Positions 25,743-61,000 of a stretch of DNA of 64,000 nt are shown one piece after another (within the stretch, counting starts at the first letter, position 1; every line of letters begins with the position of its first letter). A program made the translations under genes and the position numbers. The notes beneath the pieces were generated by a model. It ran no database searches, had not been told where the DNA came from, and was given only the letters and a program-made list of their open reading frames with translations. This DNA is from a virus, in IMG/VR virus record IMGVR_UViG_3300005842_000010, positions 9,974 to 73,973 of that record. One strand, written 5' to 3'.

Positions 25743-26097
25743 TTATTTCTTTTGACCATCCGCCCAAGTCGCGCTCACGAAGCCAGCAGGTCGCGTATTT
25801 GTCTCGAGCGAGTTCGTCCATTTGGCAAAAACAGCCGGCCTCTGGCATTTCGCGATCAAGCGGACTTCCGCATGTCCTCAAGCCCCATCGTCGGAAAAAG
25901 ATAGGACAGTCCTCGCAGGTTAGCAATCGCCGCTGGTAAACCGAATCGCTCACTTCCTCGCTGGGTGGAAAAAACCACGTATGGATTGCCCAGGACCCTT
26001 TGCGCCACGTCTTGAGAGAAAATACATTGCTGCCCAGCGCGCCAACCACAATCGCCGCAGCATGCCTAAGTTTGTGCTGGAATGAACGCTTCACCAT
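25726..26097 (-). CDS. Cys-rich hypothetical protein
   Basis: CEDC...CGS...GCFC...C pattern; overlaps its operon neighbours. Confidence 0.55.
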   Translation of the reverse strand: MVKRSFQHKLRHAAAIVVGALGSNVFSLKTWRKGSWAIHTWFFPPSEEVSDSVYQRRLLTCEDCPIFFRRWGLRTCGSPLDREMPEAGCFCQMDELARDKYATCWLRERDLGGWSKEINGDGQ

Positions 26098-27097
26098 TTG
26101 GACTCGTTCCTGCTTGGTTAAATTTTCCGGTTACTGGATCTCTAAGAATGAACCGCCTGGCCTTTTGCAACGCTTCCGGCCATCGCCTACGTCGCTTCAT
26201 CGCCCGCATTTTGTAGGCCTTCACAATCTGTATTCTGCCAAGCGCTTGCTTCTTCTCGAGCTGCTTTTGCCGTTCCGCCTGGGGTATCTTTGGCTGAGGC
26301 GGTACCAGTTTCGACCTTACAAATCTCCCTTTTACCTTCTCGGGAGGCATCCGAAGTTTTGAATAGATCATGTAATCCCGATGAAGTCGTCTTGACGCTT
26401 CCCTTACTCGCTTTATCCAGGCGCGGTACCGTAGCGCATAGCCATGGTCGCCGAGCATCTCTATCCGATCAGCCTCGGCACGCCGCGCAATACGTGTCCA
26501 AGTCGGGCAAATCTCCAACTCGATCCCGCGCATGCACGCCGTTCCGTCCCATGCCAGGAGTTTGAAAGCGCTGTACTTGTGCAGCAATTTCATCTCCCTG
26601 GATACTTCGTGCCAATTACGCCGGAACGGGCTCGGGTGCAGCTTGAAGAAATACAAATCGATCGGCGTCTCTTTGTTGATGAGGTGCCAAAGGAAAGCGT
26701 TGCAGAACTGATTCAGCCAGTATTCGAGCTCTGCCTCACTCCGCCCCACCCCGTTGAGATACATCAGGCTCAGAAACTCATTTCTCTCGGCTCGGCTCTT
26801 TCGCTTAATCCCTATTTTGATCCGGCGCCGGCGCTCCCACACGAATTGATCCTCAGGCTCTGCTGTGATGTCTTTCACGCGCTGGCCGATGCGTCGGAGT
26901 TGGCCGAAGGAAATCTTCAGCCCGTCGTTTGCAATCTTTGGAAGTGTCCCCAGACGGCTACTGAGCGCCGCCTGTTGAAACGGTGTCAGCGCCATCGCAC
27001 GCCAGATATGCGCGATTGCTCCGTGCTTCTCTACCCAGAACGGGATCGCCCAGGTCACCGGAGAGGTTCCGGTCACTGTCCACAATTCCTTTTCCAT
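26066..27097 (-). CDS. Basic hypothetical protein
   Basis: 343-aa R/K-rich ORF, the first gene on this strand next to the divergent promoter region. Confidence 0.6.
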   Translation of the reverse strand: MEKELWTVTGTSPVTWAIPFWVEKHGAIAHIWRAMALTPFQQAALSSRLGTLPKIANDGLKISFGQLRRIGQRVKDITAEPEDQFVWERRRRIKIGIKRKSRAERNEFLSLMYLNGVGRSEAELEYWLNQFCNAFLWHLINKETPIDLYFFKLHPSPFRRNWHEVSREMKLLHKYSAFKLLAWDGTACMRGIELEICPTWTRIARRAEADRIEMLGDHGYALRYRAWIKRVREASRRLHRDYMIYSKLRMPPEKVKGRFVRSKLVPPQPKIPQAERQKQLEKKQALGRIQIVKAYKMRAMKRRRRWPEALQKARRFILRDPVTGKFNQAGTSPNGEAFIPAQT

Positions 27098-27126
27098 CTA
27101 TTTTGAGATTATCACGCGAAAAATCT

Positions 27127-31709: not shown

Positions 31710-32276
31710 TTGAGCGACAAACCGAAGTTTCCGCGAGACCAGGCCATGAGCGTAGCAAATGCGCTCGTGGCCTTGCTCCGTCCGTACGTCACTCAGATCG
31801 AGATTGCTGGAAGCCTGCGCCGCGGCAAGCCAGAAGTCTCAGACATCGAGATCCTTTTTGTGCCGGCCACACAAACCTCGCCCGACGGACTTTTCGACAC
31901 ACTCACCGTTGATCTGGCCGACGCCTACATCGAATCGCTCTATAAAAGCGGCTTGATCGGCAAGCGGTTCAATTCCGCCGGCTACATCGCCGCCTGGGGA
32001 CCTAAGAACAAGCTCGGAATCCATATTCCGAGCGGCATCCCAGTAGATTTCTTCGCGACAACAGCCGACAACTGGGCCGTCAGCCTCGTGATTCGCACCG
32101 GTTCACTCGAGACGAATCTCAAACTTACTACCGGCGCACACAAGATGGGCCGCAGCCTTCACGCGTACGGTTCGGGCGTATCAATTCATGCGACGGGTGA
32201 GCAAATTAAATGCAACAGTGAGGAAGATGTATTTCGGTGTTGCAATGTTCCATATTTACCACCAGAATTACGCTAA
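31710..32276 (+). CDS. polX: Minimal family X DNA polymerase (palm and thumb only)
   Basis: IAGSLRRGKPEVSDIE, VDFF, RTGS and SEEDVF...YLPPELR. No 8-kDa, fingers or PHP domains. Confidence 0.85.
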   Translation: MSDKPKFPRDQAMSVANALVALLRPYVTQIEIAGSLRRGKPEVSDIEILFVPATQTSPDGLFDTLTVDLADAYIESLYKSGLIGKRFNSAGYIAAWGPKNKLGIHIPSGIPVDFFATTADNWAVSLVIRTGSLETNLKLTTGAHKMGRSLHAYGSGVSIHATGEQIKCNSEEDVFRCCNVPYLPPELR

Positions 32277-35259: not shown

Positions 35260-35763
35260 TTAAACCGTGGGCTTGTTCGTCGGAGTGCCGACGGTGATGC
35301 CGAGGTTCTTCGCGTTCTCGCCGGCAACAGTCAGCTCGATCGTTTCCTGCAAGTCCTCGACGCCTTCGCCGAGATCCGCGTCCGCGTCCACAAGGAACAC
35401 AGTTACGCCAGGTTCGTCAGAGGAGATCAGATCGGCGGACAGCCCGTCTGCGGCTGGAACGACCGTTGAAGTTCCACTGATAACGCTCCACACGGGAACG
35501 CCGTCGAGTTTGGCAGGTTTGCCTGAGTCTGTTTTTGGAGTGAGGGTCACATTGACCTGTTGTGCGTTTGTAATTTTTGCTGCTACCATGGTATTTACTT
35601 TCTTTTTTTGGATTACGAGGCCGAATGCTACGTCGAAATGGCCTCTTGGTTTACTGCATTCTGGCTTTAGCTCGCCTATAGACCGAGCCACAGCCAAAAG
35701 TCCTTCTCGGATCGCGCAGGCGATCTCGTCGTGCTGATGCGGCTTGCTCATGGGCATCAACAT
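35260..35763 (-). CDS. Ig-like beta-sandwich protein (isolated, moron-like)
   Basis: The C-terminal ~110 aa are beta-rich (QVNVTLTP..DGVPVWSV..ELTVAG). It is a single antisense gene with its own terminator. Confidence 0.65.
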   Translation of the reverse strand: MLMPMSKPHQHDEIACAIREGLLAVARSIGELKPECSKPRGHFDVAFGLVIQKKKVNTMVAAKITNAQQVNVTLTPKTDSGKPAKLDGVPVWSVISGTSTVVPAADGLSADLISSDEPGVTVFLVDADADLGEGVEDLQETIELTVAGENAKNLGITVGTPTNKPTV

Positions 35764-35831: not shown

Positions 35832-36111
35832 TGGTATGACACGTCAAAGGGCCACGGAACTACTTCCAGTAATTCAAGCTTTTGCTAGAGGAGAATCTGT
35901 TCAGGTGTCGATTTCATTCCCACCATCCGATTGGGAAGATTACGACGGAAATTGCGCAGATTTTCAAAATGAAAATTGGATTTGGAGGATCAAGCCAAAG
36001 CCTCGCGAGTGGTGGATAGATGAACAAGGCGTGGCTAGGCACTATAAAGAAGACGCCATCCGCAATAGTGGAAAGTTTAGACCGATCCATGTGGTGGAAG
36101 TGTTCGATTGA
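35818..36111 (+). CDS. Phage hypothetical protein
   Basis: ELLPVIQAFARGESVQ...W.D...WRIKPKPREWW, a pattern common in phage early genes. Confidence 0.7.
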   Translation: MNVATGMTRQRATELLPVIQAFARGESVQVSISFPPSDWEDYDGNCADFQNENWIWRIKPKPREWWIDEQGVARHYKEDAIRNSGKFRPIHVVEVFD

Positions 36112-36650
36112 TAAAAAGCAAAATGACACAAGAACTGTTAGCTAAGAATATAATTTTGTTGCTCAAAGGCATTTGTTGGCATAACGACGCTCGATCCACC
36201 TGGGATCCGTTCGACGGCCGGCTGCGCATTACGTTCTCACCTCACCCAGGCGATCTCCGATTTCTCATGGGCGAGGGCGGGCGCTGCATCAAAGGCCTGC
36301 AGCACGTCGCCGCAGAGATTGGCCGGCGCAATGACTACTCAGTCAGCATCAGTCTTATGCAAGCGTATCAAGGCAATGCCGAGAAGGAAGATCGCCGGTT
36401 CGAACAGAACGTCACTTTCGATCACGACGAGATCGTCCGAATCGCCAGTGGTTTGCTGGCCTCAGCGCTGGGGCGCCAGGTTGATTTGAAAGTGATTCGG
36501 AAAAACGATAGGCTCGATCTCAAGACTGAGGTTTTGACCGTTCAAGAGGACCGCGTAATCACCGCGCTCAATGAACCGCTTTACGCCTACGGTTTTCGCC
36601 AAGGCTGCATCATCAAGCTTTCAACACTCAACTCCACAGTCGTAGTATGA
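36108..36650 (+). CDS. KH-domain (KhpA-like) RNA-binding protein
   Basis: HPGDLRFLMGEGGRCIKGLQHV resembles the KH GxxG loop and the KhpA DxGxxIGKxG motif. A second similar-sized domain follows. Confidence 0.6.
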   Translation: MIKSKMTQELLAKNIILLLKGICWHNDARSTWDPFDGRLRITFSPHPGDLRFLMGEGGRCIKGLQHVAAEIGRRNDYSVSISLMQAYQGNAEKEDRRFEQNVTFDHDEIVRIASGLLASALGRQVDLKVIRKNDRLDLKTEVLTVQEDRVITALNEPLYAYGFRQGCIIKLSTLNSTVVV

Positions 36651-36973
36651 GCGAAGAAAAACGAATCCGTCCAGTGATAATCCTTCCAGAAAACATGATG
36701 AGCAAAAAGGATATTGCTCAACTTCGAAGGAACATGCTTTGCGTTGTCGAGTGCAAAGACCCTTCCATGGTGCGTTTTTGCGAGCCGCCGCCGAATGGGT
36801 ATTCGGAGCAGGAGAAGGCCGCGATCCAGTTGTGTAGGCACGTTATGACTCAACATTCCGACGTGAGCTGGACAAAGCGGCAACTTGCTGAACGGTTGGC
36901 TGATTTCTTCATTAGCGGATCGCCGCTTCAAGCACCGGCGCGGGTGCCATCCGTTCCAACGACAAAGAAATGA
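36647..36973 (+). CDS. Hypothetical protein
   Basis: 108-aa ORF with start/stop overlaps at both ends. Confidence 0.6.
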   Translation: MSEEKRIRPVIILPENMMSKKDIAQLRRNMLCVVECKDPSMVRFCEPPPNGYSEQEKAAIQLCRHVMTQHSDVSWTKRQLAERLADFFISGSPLQAPARVPSVPTTKK

Positions 36974-37374
36974 CCGAGGATGAACTCTCCATCTCCATGC
37001 GGGCAAATGGAATGCTTCCAGACGGAAAAGGAGGCTGGTTCAAACCAAAACGAAAACAAACCTCGACCGGAACTGATATTCAGCGCGGAAGTGGATGGAA
37101 GGTTGCCGAGCTGGAACGAGCTATTAGGCATGGAACACTGGTCGCGGCATCAGCTAAAAAAGGCGCTCCAAGAAACGTTCTTGTCCGGGTTACGTCAGTC
37201 CGGAGGTTCCTGCTCGATGACGATAATCTTTGCGAAAAGTTCCATGTCGATTGCTGCCGATACGCTGCAATCATTCATGGAGACAGCCCGGCTACGACGC
37301 GAATTGAAGTTGCTCAAGTTAAAGCTGGGCCTGACAAAAGAGAGTACGTCAAAATCGAAATCTACCAGTTATAA
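36970..37374 (+). CDS. rusA: RusA-like Holliday junction resolvase, catalytic C-terminal half
   Basis: VLVRVTSVRRFLLDDDNLCEKFHVDCCRYAAIIHGDS...YVKIEI fits the RusA DxDN..K...D...D pattern. Confidence 0.7.
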   Translation: MTEDELSISMRANGMLPDGKGGWFKPKRKQTSTGTDIQRGSGWKVAELERAIRHGTLVAASAKKGAPRNVLVRVTSVRRFLLDDDNLCEKFHVDCCRYAAIIHGDSPATTRIEVAQVKAGPDKREYVKIEIYQL

Positions 37375-37402
37375 AGCGCCACCAGGCGATCCGCCTTTCT
37401 AA
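36980..37402 (+). CDS. Overlapping-frame ORF resembling the RusA N-terminal half
   Basis: LIFSAEVDGRLPSWNELLGMEHWSRHQLKKALQETF resembles the beta1-PSxN-helix start of phage RusA proteins. It is nested over the previous ORF. Confidence 0.5.
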   Translation: MNSPSPCGQMECFQTEKEAGSNQNENKPRPELIFSAEVDGRLPSWNELLGMEHWSRHQLKKALQETFLSGLRQSGGSCSMTIIFAKSSMSIAADTLQSFMETARLRRELKLLKLKLGLTKESTSKSKSTSYKAPPGDPPF

Positions 37403-39192: not shown

Positions 39193-39329
39193 TAAAAATA
39201 ATCTATTGACAGGATCGGGGGAGATGTGCGAAAAGTGCGCAATGATGTTATCGACCATCAGTGAATCGCCCGTTCTGGGCGGGGGAGCCCGACTCCCGTC
39301 GATACCGTCCAGAACAGGCGATTTTGATT

Positions 39330-39401
39330 TGCGGAGTAGAGCATCGGTAGCTCGCTTGGCTCATAACCATGAGGTAGCAGGTTCGATTCCTGCCTCCGCT
39401 A
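39330..39401 (+). tRNA. tRNA-Met (CAT), initiator-like
   Basis: Cloverleaf: acceptor GCGGAG/CTCCGC with unpaired T1:T72, D stem GAGC/GCTC (A11:U24), anticodon loop CTCATAA and T arm GCAGG-TTCGATT-CCTGC. No CCA is encoded. Confidence 0.92.
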
Positions 39402-39735
39402 TCCCTTTCTTCGGGTCGAAGCCTAACGGTTATCTTGAACGTACTCCGTCGGGCACTCTCTTATCCGAAGATTTCTGCTCTCCCGCAGTGGTCGATGCAC
39501 CACGGAGCCCGAGTGATATCCCGGGAACACCAGAACGATCGTTTAGCCGATCGGAGAGCACCAATTTTTATGAGACCTCCGGGTCTGGATCACTGCAAAT
39601 CCTGGGGTTAGCGGCCTGTCACCGCGCCGTCGGGAGGACACAGCCAGATGCCAACCACCGTACGGGGGAAGACCGGGACGACAGCCCGGTGAGGTCTCGC
39701 CCTTTTCAAGAAATTCCCATAACTGAGCCGAGGCT

Positions 39736-40128
39736 ATGCAGACGAACTACTTCAAAATCTGGCGTTCAAGAAACATCGACGATGCCGCAAGAGAGAGACA
39801 CGCCAGAAAAGCGTGGGCCTACAGGCAACGAGTTAGGGCTGAGGTTATTGCGTCAATGGGTGGAAAGTGTGTCAAATGTGGATTTTCAGACCCAAGGGCG
39901 CTTCAAATCGATCACATCCATGGCGGAGGCTCCCAGGAAGAACAGGGCGGAAGCCGTTATGCTTTATTTGCCAGGCTGTCAAAACATCCAGATCCTATTA
40001 AGTTTCAATTGCTTTGCGCGAATTGTAACACCATTAAGCGAGAAGAAAACGGAGAACAGACAAAGTGCAGAAAATACCAGGCACCAGACATTGCGCCAAT
40101 GTGGGAGCCAGCCGTGTTTGATTTTTAA
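39736..40128 (+). CDS. HNH endonuclease
   Basis: MGGKCVKCG..LQIDHIHGGG..QLLCANCN. Confidence 0.85.
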   Translation: MQTNYFKIWRSRNIDDAARERHARKAWAYRQRVRAEVIASMGGKCVKCGFSDPRALQIDHIHGGGSQEEQGGSRYALFARLSKHPDPIKFQLLCANCNTIKREENGEQTKCRKYQAPDIAPMWEPAVFDF

Positions 40129-40446
40129 TGGCACCGACAGGGATATTGCCAGCGACACTTTCGGTCGCGCGCTGATTCTCGCGCGGCCCAGGCGAAGCTC
40201 ACCGACAGATATGGCCTGCCGGGTCTTCGCCTTCAATTTACGGCTGCAACAACGTGACTCGGAGCGCGTTAGCCCTGCTGGTGGTTCACCGTTTCCACTC
40301 AACCGCGCCGCCGTAAACTGTTCTATGCTGATGGCGCTAAAGCGGGCATCCGATTTCAACGCAAGCGTATCCGCAAGGATTAGGGGCAGTTGCTACCCAC
40401 GGGTGAAGCCTCCTTTGATAAATGCAACCGCTTGCGCCAATTTTCC

Positions 40447-40815
40447 ATGAACCAGCAAAAACAGTTCAAAGTGCTTAGTCAAAAGCTTTTAGAACTGGGA
40501 TTTGCGTCATACAAAGAATATCTTCTTTCACCTCACTGGTCCGCACTCAGAAGGCGATTTTTCAATAAACACCGATCGCCGCCCTGTTCCGGCTGTTGGA
40601 AAACGACCGTTCCGCTTCAACTCCATCACAGAAATTACAACCGAATCGGCCGGGAAAGGTTGTCAGACCTTGTTGCGCTCTGCGGTAATTGCCATCGTAA
40701 AACTCACGATTTTTGCCGCGCCAACACTCAATATGATTTTCATTCAGCCCATCGCCAATCACGACGCTGGGCGGGTTCTTTGACAGCAGGACAAATCAGC
40801 AAGGGCGCTACTTAG
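40447..40815 (+). CDS. HNH endonuclease
   Basis: YKEYLLSPHW..CSGC..LQLHHRNY..GRERLSDLVALCGNCH. Confidence 0.85.
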   Translation: MNQQKQFKVLSQKLLELGFASYKEYLLSPHWSALRRRFFNKHRSPPCSGCWKTTVPLQLHHRNYNRIGRERLSDLVALCGNCHRKTHDFCRANTQYDFHSAHRQSRRWAGSLTAGQISKGAT

Positions 40816-51605: not shown

Positions 51606-52042
51606 GCGAGATCCATCACCAGGGCGGAGCGCCCGAGCCTGAGTCAGTCAAAGCTCTCTCACGGAAGCTTGCCGCTCTCAACAATGGCGACCTGTCAGAT
51701 CCTGAGAAAGTGCTCAAGATCTACGGCGATTTCCGCTGGAATCTGAAAAAGGCTTCGATGATCGGCGATGTTACCTATCGCGACATCGACGTGATGCTCG
51801 ACGCCGTGATCAAGCGGATCGAGAAGCAGATCAAAAACGAAACGGTCCGGGCGGCCGCGCTTCTGAAATTCACCCAGGCGAAAACCAAGCTGTCTGAGTT
51901 CATGGAGGATGAGGATATGCGTGCGACAATATGTCACATCCATGAATTACCTTTTTTCCTTTGTCCGTGCCCCAAAGACCCATTACCGGAGAAGCCCGGG
52001 CCCTCGCCGGACCCTGGGGACTCGGGCAGCGCCAAGCCTTAA
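51602..52042 (+). CDS. Hypothetical helical protein
   Basis: 146 aa; overlaps the giant gene's 3' end convergently. Confidence 0.6.
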   Translation: MSEIHHQGGAPEPESVKALSRKLAALNNGDLSDPEKVLKIYGDFRWNLKKASMIGDVTYRDIDVMLDAVIKRIEKQIKNETVRAAALLKFTQAKTKLSEFMEDEDMRATICHIHELPFFLCPCPKDPLPEKPGPSPDPGDSGSAKP

Positions 52043-55000
52043 CCCGCGCCCTACACGCAACGTCGGTCCCCGACGGCCAGTTCCCACCCGCGGACGCCTC
52101 GGCGCCAGGGTTCGGCGACCTGAAAGCGCTTGGCTGCGCGGGGAAAACGTTCTAGGACGAGTTGACCCACCATATCCACCCACCCCAGCCGATCCGGCTT
52201 GCGTAGCGCCCTGGCGCGCCTCACCGCTGGCGGCTGTGGCGCGAGACGGAGTATCCACTCCGATATCTGACAAAGCCTGCTTATTAGCCCGTTTGTAGGC
52301 TGACTGAGCCTCTTTGGCTGTGGCTTCCGGACCAAGATCGGCTAATTCCTGCTTGAGATATTGCCCACGAGCCACTGTGTAGCTCTGCAACTCCTTATCA
52401 GTCATCGGCCTAAACTTGCCGTCGATGGCATAGCCACGGTTAGGATCGATGGAAGGCGGGCGCCAGCCGTTGGCGAAGAGCGCCTGGTAAGCCGCCGCGC
52501 CTTCCCGGGCCTTATCGTTAATCGGCACGAGGTTATTGCCGCCGGTAAGGATTTCCGTCACTCGCTGAACGGCGTTACCGCTACCGACCGGATCGCCAAG
52601 GAAGTTGACCTGAGCCGACCCGCTGGACTTGAGCGGCATGAAATAGTCCCAAACCGAGGCTGTTCGGGTATCCAGCACCACACCGTTTGCCATCCTTAGA
52701 ACCTCCTGTATTCCAGGCTGGTACGGAGACAGCGCGCTGGCTATTGATGAAATGGACTTCTCTACATGAAATGTACCCTGCTCCGAGAACGCGCTAAGCA
52801 ATCCGGAGATAGTTCTGCCGCTGGTTAATGCCCGCCAAGCTGCACTCATGGCCGCGGCAAGATAATCACCAGTGCTTCGCTCACGTATCTTTCCGGGTTC
52901 AATCCCAAGCTTTTCAGCCTCGGCATTCAGCTTGTCCTGGGCCTTCTTCTCATTGGCGCCGAGGTCGTGAATTGCCGCGCCAGCGCTCAGCCCTGGCGCA
53001 AACATGGCCGCCCAACCGACATTCAGGCTCAATCGGATATGTTTGCCGTCTCCGGTAGGGATATCCACCTGCCCAGGCTTCCAGCCCATACGGTCCCACA
53101 GTTGCCGTTCTTCTTTGTCCTTCGGCCAAGCTAGGCGAACGATAATGAATCCGGCGGCAACCAATAGATACATTGCAATTTGCCCAAGTATTCCAATGCC
53201 AGCCTCGACTTTGCGCTGTTTGCGCTGCTCGGGATACTTGTAGAACGGGGATCCTCCCTTAGCTATGCCATCTTCACCAAGCTCTCGCTCGTCAACACCG
53301 AACCAGCCGGGCTTGAATCCGAGCCCAACCCAAGTCAGCTTGCGATTGAGCATGATCCCGATGGCGTTGCCAAATCGCGTCATGGCCGTTATGCCGATAC
53401 CGATCGGCAACCCAGCTATACCTGCACCTGAAATGTTGCGCCCCAACTTTGAGACATCGCGCATAATGCTTGCTGCTGTGCCACCAACCCCGCCCTCTTC
53501 GCGCTCATTCCAGGCGTTCGTTTCGAGCATGAACATGTTGCGATTCCGGTAATCGTCAGCATCCATCCCAATCGTTCTCATGCGCTCGTATGCTTTGGCC
53601 TCCGCAATCCTCCAGGCGGCATGACTAACGGCCCGCTTGGTCGTTTCCTTGCCAGCCCCTTCAAGGAATAGCTTCGCCATCTCTGTCGCCAATACCGCTT
53701 CGAGCTTCGGGTCTCCAACGACGAAATCCGCCTTTGCTTCCGCCTCTAACTCAGTCATTCCATTGGCGCGCATTGCACGCACGACCTGTTGATGCATCTC
53801 TTGATGAACCAGCGGCACGCCCTGAAACTGATCGAGTGATTGGGCAATCACGTAGCCAATCTTGTGAAATGTCGCAAACTTGAGCAGAAAGGCTTTTGCG
53901 TGCTCACCCTTGGCGTCGAGTTCATCCGCCCGCTGCATCATTTTGTCATAGATGCTTACCCGTTGCATGATCGCAGCGACGTTCCGGCCCTGATTGGCGC
54001 CGGTAACCACCGCGCCAGCGGCACTCAACGCACCACGAAGCGCTTTAGCTCGCGCCTTGTAGGCTGCACCTATGGAAACCGACAGGTCTTTCCAGACGGC
54101 CCCAACGTCAGATCGGTTCCTCGTGCCAGCCGCTACTGCCTGTTCGTGCAGCATCAGCGTATGGGCAATGGCTGACGTTGGGGTATAAGTTGTCATCTGG
54201 GTAATGACGACATCGATAAATTGCCGTGTGGCAAACCCAGGTTTCGCTAGAAAATTAGCTGAAATGTAATCCCCGATCGCGCTGGTGATGTTCTCCCGGC
54301 CCGCCCGGGTGCGGATCGTGTACGGCTTCATGAACCGCGATAACGAGGTTTCGATCTCCTTACGTAGCCGCATCTGCTCATCCGCGAGTCCGGCCGACTT
54401 CAGCCGAAGCATCTCTTCCTGCTGCTCAACGGTCTTGCCTGCCGCCTCTTCGGGGGTGAGCTTGCTAATCTCGTCAAGCTTGTCCGCCCAGCGCTTTACC
54501 TGCTGCAGTTGCTCATCTGTCGGTATCTTCCAGCCGGGCTCGATCCTGGCCATCTCGCGCAAGACGTTCCACGGTTTGCCTTCTCCCCCACGAATAAGCT
54601 CAATGATCTTGCTACCTATGCGCGTGCCCGGGCCCCACCGCTTGCGCATCGTCGGAGCGTGCTTTTTAAGCGCGTCCTCGAGAGCCTTGCGCAGTTTATC
54701 AACCTCTTCCTGGGTTTCCCTCGCTCCACCGCCGGCGGTTCCTTGTGCTTTGCGCAACCTCTCAATTTCAGCGCGGGCTTTTTCTAATTCATCCAATACA
54801 CGCCGCATAGCATCTCCACCGAGGGCCTGCGACCAGATTTTACCCAGCTCAGCATCGATATTCCGCCCACTCGTGATTGCGTCATCGCGCACGCCCATGA
54901 GCGCGCGGAGGGCCAGGCCGCGGGCGCTGGCATCGCTCTGCACTGCCGACCATAACTCCACCCGGATCCATGGCTGCATCTCGGCCATGGCGCTTTTGCT

Positions 55001-58000
55001 GGCTGGCATCTCGAAATTCTGCCGGATGCTGTTGATGATAGCGCCCAGGTCCTGGCGCGCCTTGCCCGGCTCGCTCTTAGCCAACTCTTCCTTGTACCGG
55101 CGCAGCAACGCCTCGCCGTCGGGTGTCGTATCTCGCCCTTGTGGCGTCATCACCCAGACTGGAAACTCCTGGCCGTTCTGCTCAACGATTTGCTCAGTGC
55201 TCGGGATACCAACGGAATCTAGAATGTCCTTTGCCAACTTGTGGCCGGCGGCCGGATCAAGTTGCTCTCGGCCCAGGACGTAGTATTCAGCACCGAGGAC
55301 CATCGTCGGTATACGATGTTGCTCTGCCGCCTCGTCGAGCATTCGATCCATCTCTTCTTTCTGCTCGTCTGCCGAAAGAGAATATTTCGTCTCGCCTGGC
55401 GTTGATGTCCCATCTCTCTGTCGCTTGGCAAACTTGAGCACCGCATCAGCCAGCGCCTCGCGCGCGCGCCTTAAGTCGCTAAAATACTGTTCGGCCCCAT
55501 ACTTTCTCAAACCAACCACGAGCCTTTTGAAGAAATCGCTAACTATTCTGGCGAACCGAGAGAATAGCGACGGCTCTTTTTCGTAAAGCCGATTCCAGAA
55601 TGCCGGGTCGATGAAGCTGTCGCCAAGAAGATCGGCGTTTAAGTTCTCTCTGGCTAATGCCTCATCTGGTAATTCCATCTTCGCCCGACCGTAAGAACTT
55701 CGCATCAGCGTCCAATACTTTATGAATCCAGCTTGCAAGGGATCAAGCACAGCGGCGAGTTCTTCATAAAGCGCTGGGTCCGACCTCGCGATCTCGTGCG
55801 TCAGCTCGTGGCCAACGACACTAAGCCATGGTTGTTTGGATTCGGCGTTGACGAACAGGACTCCGGGGATTTCTTTTTGCACGAATCCGTTAATTCCCGG
55901 CCCTGGAGATGTGATAAAAGCAATCTGGACTCCCAGAATCTGTTCAAGGGCTTCCCGGATATTTCCAGCCACCTGTTGGTCAGTACTAGGATTAAGTCCC
56001 GCGCCTGGCGGCTCGACTTCTCGAATAGGCTGATCAGGTCCTCCTCGCTGAGGAGATGGAGGGCGAAGTCGAGAGAGTAACTGAACGGCGGCGCTTCTAC
56101 GTTTATCCACGACCCGTCTATCTTCAGGCTGTAGCAATGGCTCTCTGGCTCCGGGAACTTCTTCCTTTCCAGCACTTCCAGCATCGTCAATGCTGGCTTG
56201 TCTGTATCGTTCATTTGTTCTTTCTAATTCAGCCACCGAAATTGGATTGGCTGGTTCAAATCTTCCTTCGAGAATGTTGTCGAGAAACTCCTTCTGATTC
56301 GGTCGCAGCTTTAGTGCGCGCTTGATAGCGTCTATAACCTGAGAAATGATCGCTTTAACTTTAGCCCAGAATCCCTCGACAGTTGAGCCAACCTTTTTCT
56401 GGTAGTGGTTGCTCATGGTGTGCACGAAGTACTCTTCGGCTGATGAAATCGGGTAAAGCATCGAACGCAGCGCAAGCGGGTAACCGCGTGACAGGAAATC
56501 ATCTCCGCCCACTGTGGGATTATCTCTTATATCAGTTAAGGCGGTAACGGTCTCAGGTTTTCCAGCTTCTTGCGCTTCTTTGATTAGGACGTCTGCTGTG
56601 GCAACTCTTTGGCGATCAAATTCCACCTTCATTTCCTCTGGCATGATTGGCCATAGGAGGCCGTGAGATAATTCGTGCGGTCCCGTAATTGGATCGGCGC
56701 TTCTAGCAATTGATATGATGGTTTGTATTCCACTTCCCCGCTCGGTCGTTCCTTGGAAGTCGCCATCCAAATGATCTGTCACGATGAGCTTTATATCCGG
56801 AGCGAGTGCCATAACCGGCTCGCTCAGAAACGCGGCCATGAGCTTTTCGGTTTGCTCCGGTAATCCCATGTGTGGGAGTAAGGCGCTTAGCTCTGCATGC
56901 GATCGCGCCTGGTAAGTCGGCAGTGATTCCGTGAGCTCCGCCGGTGGCTCGGTCGCGAGACTGCCTTGCTTTCGCAGCACTTCGACGATGGGTTTGTAAC
57001 GAATAACCTTTGCCATCACCGCTTCTGCGTTGTCGCCAGTCGGGATGAAGTAGCGCATCTGATAAGCGATTCGTTCCATGAGCACGCCATTACGCTTCAA
57101 CTCTTCTTGATGGGTGTAATCCGGTCCGGTGATTTCAATCCTGTCCTCGCCGCTCACGTAACGCCTGGAAATCTTCCATCCGTTGGAAAGGTTGAGCACG
57201 GCTGCATCTTCAAGGACCGCATCGACCGCCTGGGCGGGCGTCATATCGATCTTGCCTTCCAGCCCGAAATTCTTTTCCAACTCGGGCACGTAATCAGCAG
57301 GCATCAAAACGCCAAGATGTCTTTTTCCGGTATCCTCCTGGGCGCGAGCAATCCGGCTGATGCCGGGGATACGATCCCACACCGGCAAAATGGTCCCGGT
57401 AACGAGGTGGACGCGCGACACGTACGTCTTTGGCGCAGCATCGAAAGCTTTTCGCCAGATGTCTTCGGCCTTTTCCGCATTAACCATTTCGAATTTGTCG
57501 CTTTCGATTTGGTCGGTAGTCATGTAGGCACGTGTGCTTTTGACGTTTGTGCCCAGGCGATACTCTTCAGTCCTTCCGTCCGAGAGTGCCCGCGTGCGAA
57601 CAGGGTCCAACTTCCAGACCACACCGCTGCGTTTGTTGACGGTAAACTCAACACCTTTCTCTTCTGCCCAGGCTGGGTTCCACTTTGTTAGAATCGTCGG
57701 GTGCGTCTGGTCAAGCGCCACCAACTTTGTTTTCGCGCCAGTGTCCGGATCGGTATAAAGCGTTTCGTCTTTCGCGAGCTTCGTGGATTGTGCCGTCAGC
57801 GTCTCCATGCCAGCGTCGAGCGTCCCGTTTGTTTTGTGCCATTCGATAACGGCATCGAGTTGTGCGCTGAACCGTTTGAAAACCTTGTCCTGCATGTCGA
57901 GGTTAAGGCTCAGTAAACGATTCAGGAATTGCCCGATCTGGATATTCTCGCCGATGAATTGCCCGTCCTTATTGTAAAGTTCCAGCCCTGTCTGGGCAGA

Positions 58001-61000
58001 GAAGTCCGCTGGCTTAATCTCATCGAATTGATTGTTGGCCATCCCGCGCAGGAACGATCTCAGAGACTCACGCGCATACGTGCTTTCCAGATTGTCGCGA
58101 GCGTCGAACACGCCCTGGCTGGTTGTCTGCCGCTGGCCCTTGGTGAGCGCGCCGAGCTGCTCAATGCGTCGGGCAATCGTGGAAACAAAGCGCTTATGCC
58201 CTGGCACGTCCGTCGAAATCAGGATGAAATTCGGTGGCTGCTTCTGATTGCTGCGATGACTTCGGCCCAATCCCTGGATGGCGTTATCCGCCCGCCAGCC
58301 TGGTTGCGCTACGATATGATCCCGCGTGTCCTGATTCTTGAAATTCCTGTCAGCGTGATAGCTGGCGCCGGTACCGCCAGCATCCGAGAAACCCAAGATC
58401 CGTTTCTTCCGATCGTTGAACGCTGTGCGATCTGCGATGTTTGATTGCTGGTTTCGGTTTTCGACAACCTTTTTCCTGCCTTCAGGCGTATCCTTGGTGA
58501 CCACTCTTCGAGAGCGCCCGGTCACCTCGGCGACATTCTTCTCTCCAAACGTTTCGATCAATTCATCGAGCGCACCCATCGGCACTCGGATCGAGGCCAG
58601 CTTATCCTTGAGATCCTCGCGCATGGCCACCGCTTCCTTGCTCTGAACTCGGTTGCCCTCCGAATCCACAACCGGCCGGGATCTGGTGGTGCCGTTGTCG
58701 TCAGTGTATTCCTCGTATTGATCGACTGGAAAAGCATTGTCGATGTACTGGATTAGTGATTCACGCGGAGTTATATCGAGCGTCTCAAGATCGGGTGTCT
58801 CTTCTTCCTCGCCAGCCTTTGACAGCGCTCGCTCCATCTGCGCCTCATTCGTGTTGACGAGCTGCACGACGACTGAATGCCCCGCGTCAATACTGGATTT
58901 GGTCCTGCTCAGGAGTGTTGGCATCTGCAAACTTGTTAGCAGTTGGTTGAAGAACCGTTGATGAGCACCCCAGAAAGCGCTACGCGCGGCAGATTTCGCC
59001 TGTCCGTTTTTGTCGGCTCCAGTGAGGCCGAGGGCTGCATTCATGTTTCGCAGCACGATTTGCCAGGCACCGGCCAGCGCATCATACATTTCTCGCTGCT
59101 TATCGGTGAGCTTATGCTCTAGCCGCTCGTACGTGACCCCATCGAAACTCAGATTGCGCGAGACATACATTCCCATCGCTTTCAAATCTTTGGCGACGAT
59201 CTCCATCGCGCCCATGCCTTTTGAACCGATCTCGGAAATGAAAGCGTCACGATTCGGAAAAGGCGTGCCCTCTCCCCAAAGCCCGAGCGCTTCAGCGTAG
59301 GCCAGGTTGCTAACCTCAGTGGCACCAGTGGCGCTCACGTACACCTTGCGCGCTTTCGGGAACGCCGCTTGGAGTTGTATGCCCATCAAAGCTTGCTCGC
59401 TGGCTTTCTTTTTTCCGCGCGCCCCCTTGGTTTCGACCGCGTTAGCCATCTTGTGGCTTTCGTCCATGATAATGACGCCATCGAAATCTTTGCCGAGCCA
59501 CTCGACGAGCTGCTTCATTCGCGCTTCACTGCGAATCAAGCTGTACGTGCTGAACAGGACGCCATCGACGGAGGGGATCGGGTTATCCACCTTTTGGCCG
59601 GCTGGGCCAGTTTGAAGTTTAATCTTACCATGTCGGATGAGCACGTCTTTAGTCCAGCCGATGCCGTCCATGTCGCGTTGCGCGTCGAAAAACAACTTTC
59701 CATCAGCCGTTAGCCATACGTGCCTCTTTCGGCCCTGGTTCCAATTGTCCCAAATGATTGCCGAATTGGTCCTACCTTTTCCTACCCCTGTTCCGTCTCC
59801 GATGAAAAATCCACGACGGCGACCATCAGGCAATTCTCGACCGTGCGCAGCGCCAGCCAACATCACCGCTTCGAACTGCGGGCCACTCAACGCGCCGGTT
59901 GTCAGGATGGTGGACGGGAGGGACGGCTTATACTTCGTCTCAGGATATGGCACGCTCGACATCGCCGCGCTTTGCGACAGCGCCGTCGGATGATCTTTGG
60001 CACCTTTGATGTTGATTTGCGGTTTGTAGTTCTCGAATACCGCGCCCACCTCCATGTCTTTGGCCTTGGCCTCTTCGGCTGCCTCGACACTCAGGTCTTG
60101 TCCCAGTACGGCACCCTCTCCTGCGCGTGCAGGTTCAGCACTTGGAGCAGGCTGTCCCCCGCTTGGTACGGATCCTTTTCCTTCAAGAAGTCTTTCGCTA
60201 ACCGGTCCTGTTCCTCCGGTAACTCTGGGGCCGGTGCCAGCAGACACTCTAACTGTTGTTGCGGGGGCTTTGCTTGGAGGTTCCCCAGCCACTGCTCTAG
60301 GCGTCCCGGGTTCTCCACCTGCGGGTTTGGCTGGTTTAGCCTCCACTCCGCTAGTTGGAACAGGTGGAGCTGGCTCGGGTCCGGGGGCTGCTTCGCCACC
60401 GCCAGTAACTTCGCCGCCTGCTGGTTCAATGGGTGCTGGTTCAGCGCTTCGAGCTGTTGGTTCTCGTTCATTTCGTATTCCTTCCAGTAACGGTATTAAA
60501 TCCTCGATCTTTTTGACGGAAGCTGTCTGCCAGCTTTGATTCAATTGATTGGCAGGCGGAAGCTCGCCAGCTTTCGGTTTGTCGATGATAACAATCTGAT
60601 TACCGAAGCTCGTGCCGTATTTTTTGTATTCGTCTCCGCTGATGTGGACGTTGGCGCGAACGTTGTACTTGCTGGAAATCATCTTCCACCAGGCTTTGAA
60701 CGTCGCCCGATCGGCCGCCATGCCTTCACCCACGATGGCCACGAGCCGCCCTCCTGGCTGCAATCTTCCCAGCGCTTGCTCAAGGTGCGCGGTGGCAAAC
60801 TCGGTTGATTTCTTGCCCTTCATCGTCGCGCTCACGCTGAAAGGCGGATTCATTATCACGACGGTTGGGCGTACGCTGTCGGGTAAGATGTTGTCCAACT
60901 GCTCGGCGTTCTCGTGGTAGATCGGTTCGAAACCCATCTGTTCGAGAATCTTTGCACGTCGATCACTCAACTCATTGACGACTACTTTCGCACCGGTATT

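Follow-up and report, generated by a model that had tools for sequence, protein, structure and literature searches.

A viral RusA-type Holliday-junction resolvase probably made as two chains from nested reading frames

Programmed -1 frameshifting is known from dnaX, the IS3-family orfA/orfB pair and the tail chaperones G/GT, and in phages a recombination/replication module is the customary neighbourhood of rusA. The RusA resolvase of E. coli (PDB 1q8r, 2h8c, 2h8e; PF05866; PHROGs 34, 1682) has catalytic residues D70, D72, N73, K76 and D91, whose roles have been described, and a turn with S13 and N15 that has been placed on DNA (PMC1636454). In the alpha/beta C5 methyltransferase M.EcoHK31I, the beta chain is read from a different frame, lying entirely within the alpha gene, and the two chains must associate (PMC2836561).

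The locus compared here with these systems lies in a window of 64,000 nucleotides (the whole stretch of DNA that was analysed), itself part of a 79 kb virus record that is 76% complete. A sequencing-run look-up found the window sequence in rhizosphere metagenomes, and no RNA run was present among the listed sequencing runs holding it. Re-reading of the sequence confirmed the two overlapping open reading frames (ORFs) of the original prediction, which share 395 nt, and the motifs, slippery heptamer and 6-bp stem were all where it had placed them. The features are as follows.

36647-36973, plus strand: upstream ORF, 108 aa; its stop overlaps the ATG of A and it ends 7 nt 5' of the ATG of B
36970-37374, plus strand: ORF A (chain A), 134 aa; low-confidence leader of about 66 aa, then strand 2, helix 2 and strands 3-4
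36980-37402, plus strand: ORF B (chain B), 140 aa, +1 frame relative to A, alternative ATG at 37007; RusA strand 1, PSWN and helix 1, followed after a loop by a long additional basic helix whose bases also encode the catalytic domain of A
37106-37117, plus strand, frame B: P-S-W-N, equivalent of the DNA-contacting turn P12-S13-N14-N15 of E. coli RusA
37139-37198, plus strand, frame B: helix 1, with F67 at 37178 and the invariant L71 at 37190
37156-37162, plus strand: A AAA AAG heptamer, encoding Leu-Lys-Lys of helix 1; judged incidental
37169-37174/37178-37183, plus strand: CAAGAA/TTCTTG stem, present; judged incidental
37216-37284, plus strand, frame A: catalytic residues D83 (37216), D85 (37222), N86, K90 (37237), D94 and D105 (37282)
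37250-37340, plus strand, frame B: second helix of B, A/D-T-L..Y/F-L followed by a K/R-rich part; no counterpart in intact RusA

At this locus the RusA protomer is not encoded as a single polypeptide, its halves being in different frames. We built an intact-RusA profile from 11 intact single-frame relatives (127 positions), which matched E. coli RusA 1q8r at E 9e-4. Against it the A profile aligned at positions 58-126 (prob 98.7, E 1.9e-16) and the B profile at positions 8-47 (hhalign, prob 86.9, E 4.2e-6), so that in these alignments the two together tile an intact RusA. This tiling supported the assignment of both halves to RusA, with the LPSWN/HW helix in frame 36980 and VRVTS..DDDNL..K..D..D in frame 36970. 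Among the A cores of 58 homologues, 17 matched phrog_34 and 6 matched phrog_1682, and the B chains of 3 homologues matched phrog_1682 weakly (best E 0.021). Pfam and PHROG scans of the window's own A and B gave no significant match, and the A core matched nothing in a PDB sequence search. Modelled alone, A formed a core of three strands and one helix, whose best fold match among 48,161 chains was a modest one to 1q8r 44-117 (Z 5.5, rmsd 4.9, 72 aligned). Foldseek returned nothing at E <= 0.001, and RusA had the highest probabilities (0.90-0.92).

The catalytic residues of chain A (D83, D85, N86, K90, D94 and D105) were invariant in alignment A1. We take D94 to be the equivalent of RusA D80. 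For the others, profile alignments gave the correspondences D83=D70, D85=D72, N86=N73, K90=K76 and D105=D91 (PMC1636454). The spacer between the Asn and the Lys is shorter in A than in intact RusA, with the K76 equivalent shifted by one residue. The D91 equivalent was 94-100% conserved. Where RusA has its arginine-rich loop, R78 and R80 were conserved at 98% and 89%, and the residue before the first Asp (the R69 position) was L/I, as it likewise is in the intact relatives used for the profile. The D90 position was G in 42%, S in 18% and D in 18% of the window's clade, and many divergent members have DD. Judged by these residues, A and B together should work like RusA.

The N-terminal strand, PSxN turn and helix 1 of RusA were all located in frame B. 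The PSWN residues were conserved at 98% (P), 100% (S), 100% (W) and 100% (N) across 59 homologues, and the motif precedes the catalytic Asp by 39 codons in 58 loci, the remaining one having LSWN there. L71 of helix 1 was found in 59/59 and F67 in 54/59. The second helix of B was also conserved (T in 56/59, L in 52/59, Y/F in 50/59), at places where neighbouring silent sites stand at about 50:50, and it is interrupted by stops in some relatives. One locus (L106, on a contig of about 2730 nt) has a stop in this helix, +11 codons, and is the sole such member of the window's clade.

The set of 59 homologous loci was drawn from viral, metagenome and genome contigs and kept at <85% identity, with a median nucleotide identity of 60%. 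Expected counts of open frames came from a null in which the protein of one frame was kept, its codons were redrawn, and the other frame was then scored. Counted over related loci, which are not independent trials, B was open across the catalytic domain of A in 58/59 (2.1-9.1 expected) and A was open on the 5' side of the putative slip site in 58/58 (11.8-16.6 expected); the +2 frame, as a control, was open in 7/58 (8.4-15.9 expected). The most variable codon position was the wobble of B in the 5' part and the wobble of A in the 3' part, and both wobbles were equally constrained where helix 1 of B overlaps strand 2 of A. Because L71 of B is invariant, the frame A codon there ends in T in 59/59. 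By these measures the dual coding is real and far beyond chance, and saturated silent sites argue against shared descent alone as the cause of the open frames. The overlap of A and B bears out the estimate of about 400 dual-coding nucleotides, and frame 36980, on whose conservation in homologues the original prediction had been made to depend, is conserved.

Motifs split between two frames usually mean a sequencing error or a recent frameshift, in this case in an ordinary rusA gene. Such an origin is scarcely credible for this locus, since contigs from other runs contained no indel in the stretch (run X3 may be the source of the window DNA) and the nested layout was observed in 94 non-redundant loci, of which the first 59 make up the divergent set above.

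The original prediction had instead favoured a programmed -1 frameshift from frame 36980 into frame 36970 at A AAA AAG, stimulated by the stem and giving one fused RusA. In bacteria this heptamer is a strong site of slippage; it is present in the window, and the two frames do stand at -1 to each other. As a recoding signal it fared poorly, with A_AAA_AAG at the window's site in 3/59 homologues and any X XXY YYZ in 14/59, at dispersed positions. Over the whole interval from PSxN to strand 2, A AAA AAG occurred in 10/94 loci and any heptamer in 15/94. Likewise the hairpin lies 6 nt 3' of the heptamer as described, yet as a stimulator it stood at chance level: the stem was no more stable than shuffles in the window (z 0.11), no conserved 3' structure was found over the 59 homologues (mean z 0.0; 3/59 below -2), and at least 5 of the 6 pairs were kept in 15/59.

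The geometry of the two halves also counts against a fusion. In the window family the motif Ser and the catalytic Asn lie 39 codons apart, vs 50-60 in intact RusA-like genes, and the last turns of helix 1 are encoded by bases that strand 2 of frame A (37177-37203) also uses. Since helix 1 runs to about 37198 and strand 2 starts from about 37177, a -1 fusion would lose about 20 residues; joined at 37162, it would be missing the linker and the latter half of helix 1, with F67 and the invariant L71 among the residues lost. It appears from the sequence that no shift site could preserve both helix 1 and strand 2. In addition, A is open upstream of the site, and B stays open for 60 codons past it in 58/59 homologues and is under selection there. 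We therefore consider the programmed shift very improbable. A shift at the conserved TTC TTG was also considered and rejected, as just 69% of homologues have TTT for the -1 codon (the window has GTT) and helix 1 would still be cut. Like the known -1 frameshift systems, the locus combines A AAA AAG with a downstream frame at -1 to the upstream one. Those systems, however, conserve their slip site and can dispense with a start in the second frame, whereas here the site is not conserved, each frame has its own ATG and both are open.

Both chains appear to have their own starts. Walking upstream from strand 1, B reached an ATG before a stop in 86/93 loci vs 44.8 expected under a synonymous null; an ATG in frame C in 3/94 makes an unfair control, as frame C is richer in stops. 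An ATG for A was present in 80/94 loci. The commonest distances from the ATG of A to that of B were 7 and 10 nt (23/78), and the ATG of A touched a stop codon in 50/78, a count taken without a null. In the window the ATG of A overlaps the upstream TGA (ATGA) and the ATG of B follows 10 nt later, which makes the upstream ORF a candidate source of coupled initiation for both chains. An FPNAS motif in the A leader was found in 21 loci; its variation in frame A is silent, suggesting translation of the leader. In another locus (L130:556-562), TTGAATG behind GGAGG offers possible starts for A (TTG) and B (ATG) 4 nt apart at one Shine-Dalgarno site. At the inspected homologous loci, gene callers list only B, that is, one frame.

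Assembly of the two chains was examined by modelling. The complex of the A core with B scored 0.72 vs 0.02 for the best control, a mark reached by 58/80 solved pairs and by 2/110 mismatched pairs. Model runs shared at least 88% of contacts, and the partner pLDDT was 75. In the model the tightest contacts join B 5-15 with A 62-68, and the first strand of B, a segment that formed no strand when B was modelled alone, pairs with the last strand of A. Helix 1 and the second helix of B (residues 64-73 of the modelled part) also contact A, and F67 and L71 fall within the modelled interface. The four-stranded sheet and two helices of RusA were thereby recovered in the model, from three strands of A and one of B. 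Because halves of a split gene tend to pass in that way, the score may reflect likeness to solved RusA, as a fit to the RusA fold and not as binding in the cell. Together with dual selection and two starts, the modelled complex supports the second option of the original prediction, that both frames are translated and the two chains assemble.

Both chains could also be made without forming one enzyme, A acting alone or with another partner and B being a DNA-binding or regulatory protein descended from RusA, such as an inhibitor of A. The long basic helix of B is foreign to RusA, A has a leader of its own of 60-70 aa, and the binding of A to B is modelled only, all of which would fit such a division. 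The leader, however, has no conserved strand or helix to replace the N-terminal half; it aligned with nothing in the intact RusA profile and was modelled at low confidence (pLDDT 50-67). Furthermore, the S and N that contact DNA in intact RusA are precisely those retained by B, and the two frames occurred together at fixed spacing in all split loci examined, so we think two separate proteins quite unlikely. A RusA fold might instead be assembled with some other activity, as a nickase, a branched-DNA nuclease or a non-cutting junction binder, with the extra helix of B for example taking the place of the second protomer. The modelled contact of that helix with A and the replacement of D90 by G/S in most members of the window's clade lean this way, while the D70, D72, N73, K76 and D91 equivalents are invariant or nearly so and relatives without the extra helix keep the same layout; we regard a changed activity as unlikely.

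The reading we prefer, and consider likely, is that the nested frames of the locus encode two chains, each with its own initiation, which together form a RusA-type Holliday-junction resolvase. Of these, chain B would give strand 1, the PSxN DNA-contacting turn and helix 1, and chain A would give strand 2, the catalytic helix and the last strands; with strand 1 of B paired to the last strand of A and helix 1 packed on the A sheet, one RusA protomer would be rebuilt. Two such A:B units would then dimerise like RusA (A2B2) and presumably cut junctions in phage recombination or replication. Ribosomes finishing the upstream gene may re-initiate at either ATG, 10 nt apart, and so make both chains from one message. 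The extra basic helix of B would brace A and may bind DNA, and is probably dispensable in some lineages.

The B profile matched 315 clusters at 50% identity (E <= 0.001), and the catalytic motif was absent from these matches among those listed (P0067-P0225). Genome matches were to Verrucomicrobium spp., Verrucomicrobiota MAGs and one Ca. Taylorbacteria MAG. The nested layout is retained by divergent members whose motifs read PSLN and DPDNL. It is also seen in a second deep subfamily, marked by the catalytic helix 'RDAIA', where the spacing is 41-42 or 58. B ends right after helix 1 in L143, L146, L183 and L251/L253/L265, and in the last three (spacing 46) it stops where strand 2 of A begins, leaving a bare N-terminal half. 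Spacing was 43 in L207, and in L133/L155/L189 the start of A lies inside the first strand of B. The spacing-58 group is the only one where a shift could give a full-length protein, yet both ATGs are present and A is open throughout. Five loci with nested halves (L277, L278, L283-L285) have spacing 58 as in intact genes and are candidates for an early or re-expanded state. The DNA patterns used bias which subfamilies were sampled, so the proportion of split to intact genes among these loci should not be read as an estimate.

A quick tree built from concatenated N- and C-terminal halves (33 rows, 110 columns, leaving out intact L204, L250, L252, L255, L266 and L274, and with no order or direction claimed) rejected placing the split genes on one side of a branch (p-AU 0.002). 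Taken at face value, this non-monophyly means repeated origin or re-fusion. More tentatively, the nested two-chain layout could be a recurrent evolutionary state of RusA, reached by repeated origin or lost by re-fusion, with spacing passing from 58 through 46, 43 and 41 to 39 codons; at 39, helix 1 and strand 2 would share bases, a new overprinted helix would join the complex and the starts would lie 7-10 nt apart off one upstream stop. We hold this history to be possible but doubtful.

Around the RusA locus, Erf-like, exonuclease, initiator and DnaC-like genes were found on the 5' side and a Dam methylase on the 3' side. No second match to the A catalytic core was found in the genome record (76% complete), and a tblastn search of annotated phages gave no match to A or B, with no cultured representative found. 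Several other ORFs in the window were also recorded. Directly upstream, an ORF at 36108-36650 (plus strand, 180 aa) has a GxxG-like MGEGGR stretch, which we assume to resemble a KhpA-like KH RNA-binding domain, and had no Pfam or PHROG match. An ORF at 31710-32276 (plus strand, 188 aa) with AGSLRR..D.E motifs, which presumably resemble the nucleotidyltransferase domain of X-family polymerases, had no PHROG match. A minus-strand ORF at 35260-35763 (167 aa, beta-rich-looking) lies inside the plus-strand operon and is wholly overlapped by a plus-strand ORF at 35267-35737 (156 codons), and opposite-strand overlapping ORFs were seen at 26066-27097 (minus strand, 343 aa) and 26444-27106 (plus strand, 220 aa). 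A 414-codon open frame at 39206-40450 (plus strand) encloses a 130-aa HNH endonuclease gene at 39736-40128, which is read on that strand in a different frame, and a 4000-codon ORF occupies 51983-63985 (minus strand). A 630-nt contig of run X3 joins 36632 and 37402 across 426 other letters, a weak join with 30 letters on its short side, and is possibly from a related phage without the 36647 ORF and the RusA pair.

If the preferred reading, two separately initiated chains forming one resolvase, is true, the locus would be a natural split nuclease with both halves written on the same bases, a layout known from M.EcoHK31I, with none found for resolvases. Literature searches, which miss most subscription papers, gave nothing relevant on a split, overlapping or frameshifted RusA. 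The more than 300 clusters would provide a deep alignment for overlapping-gene constraint and for transitions between one-chain and two-chain enzymes. With one-frame gene calls and no Pfam or PHROG match for the window's chains, such phages would appear to be without a resolvase or to have a truncated one. A small two-part junction nuclease would also be simple to assay and could find use as a conditional tool.

Compared with E. coli RusA, the window pair has the same fold elements and PSxN turn, equivalents of D70/D72/N73/K76/D91 and an apparent basic loop before the active site, and it is likewise located in a phage recombination/replication module. E. coli RusA is one chain that forms a homodimer, whereas the window's protomer would be divided between two nested-frame chains; the pair also lacks the linker between helix 1 and strand 2, does not keep the D90 and R69 positions, and has a long leader on A and an extra basic helix on B. 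As in M.EcoHK31I, complementary parts of one fold lie in two frames of the same DNA, each with its own start. Association of the chains is needed for activity in M.EcoHK31I (PMC2836561), while that of A and B is modelled only. M.EcoHK31I belongs to an unrelated enzyme family, and its nested chain supplies one internal motif (IX); unlike that chain, the nested B would supply the N-terminal third of the fold, and helix 1 and strand 2, both core elements, are encoded by shared bases.
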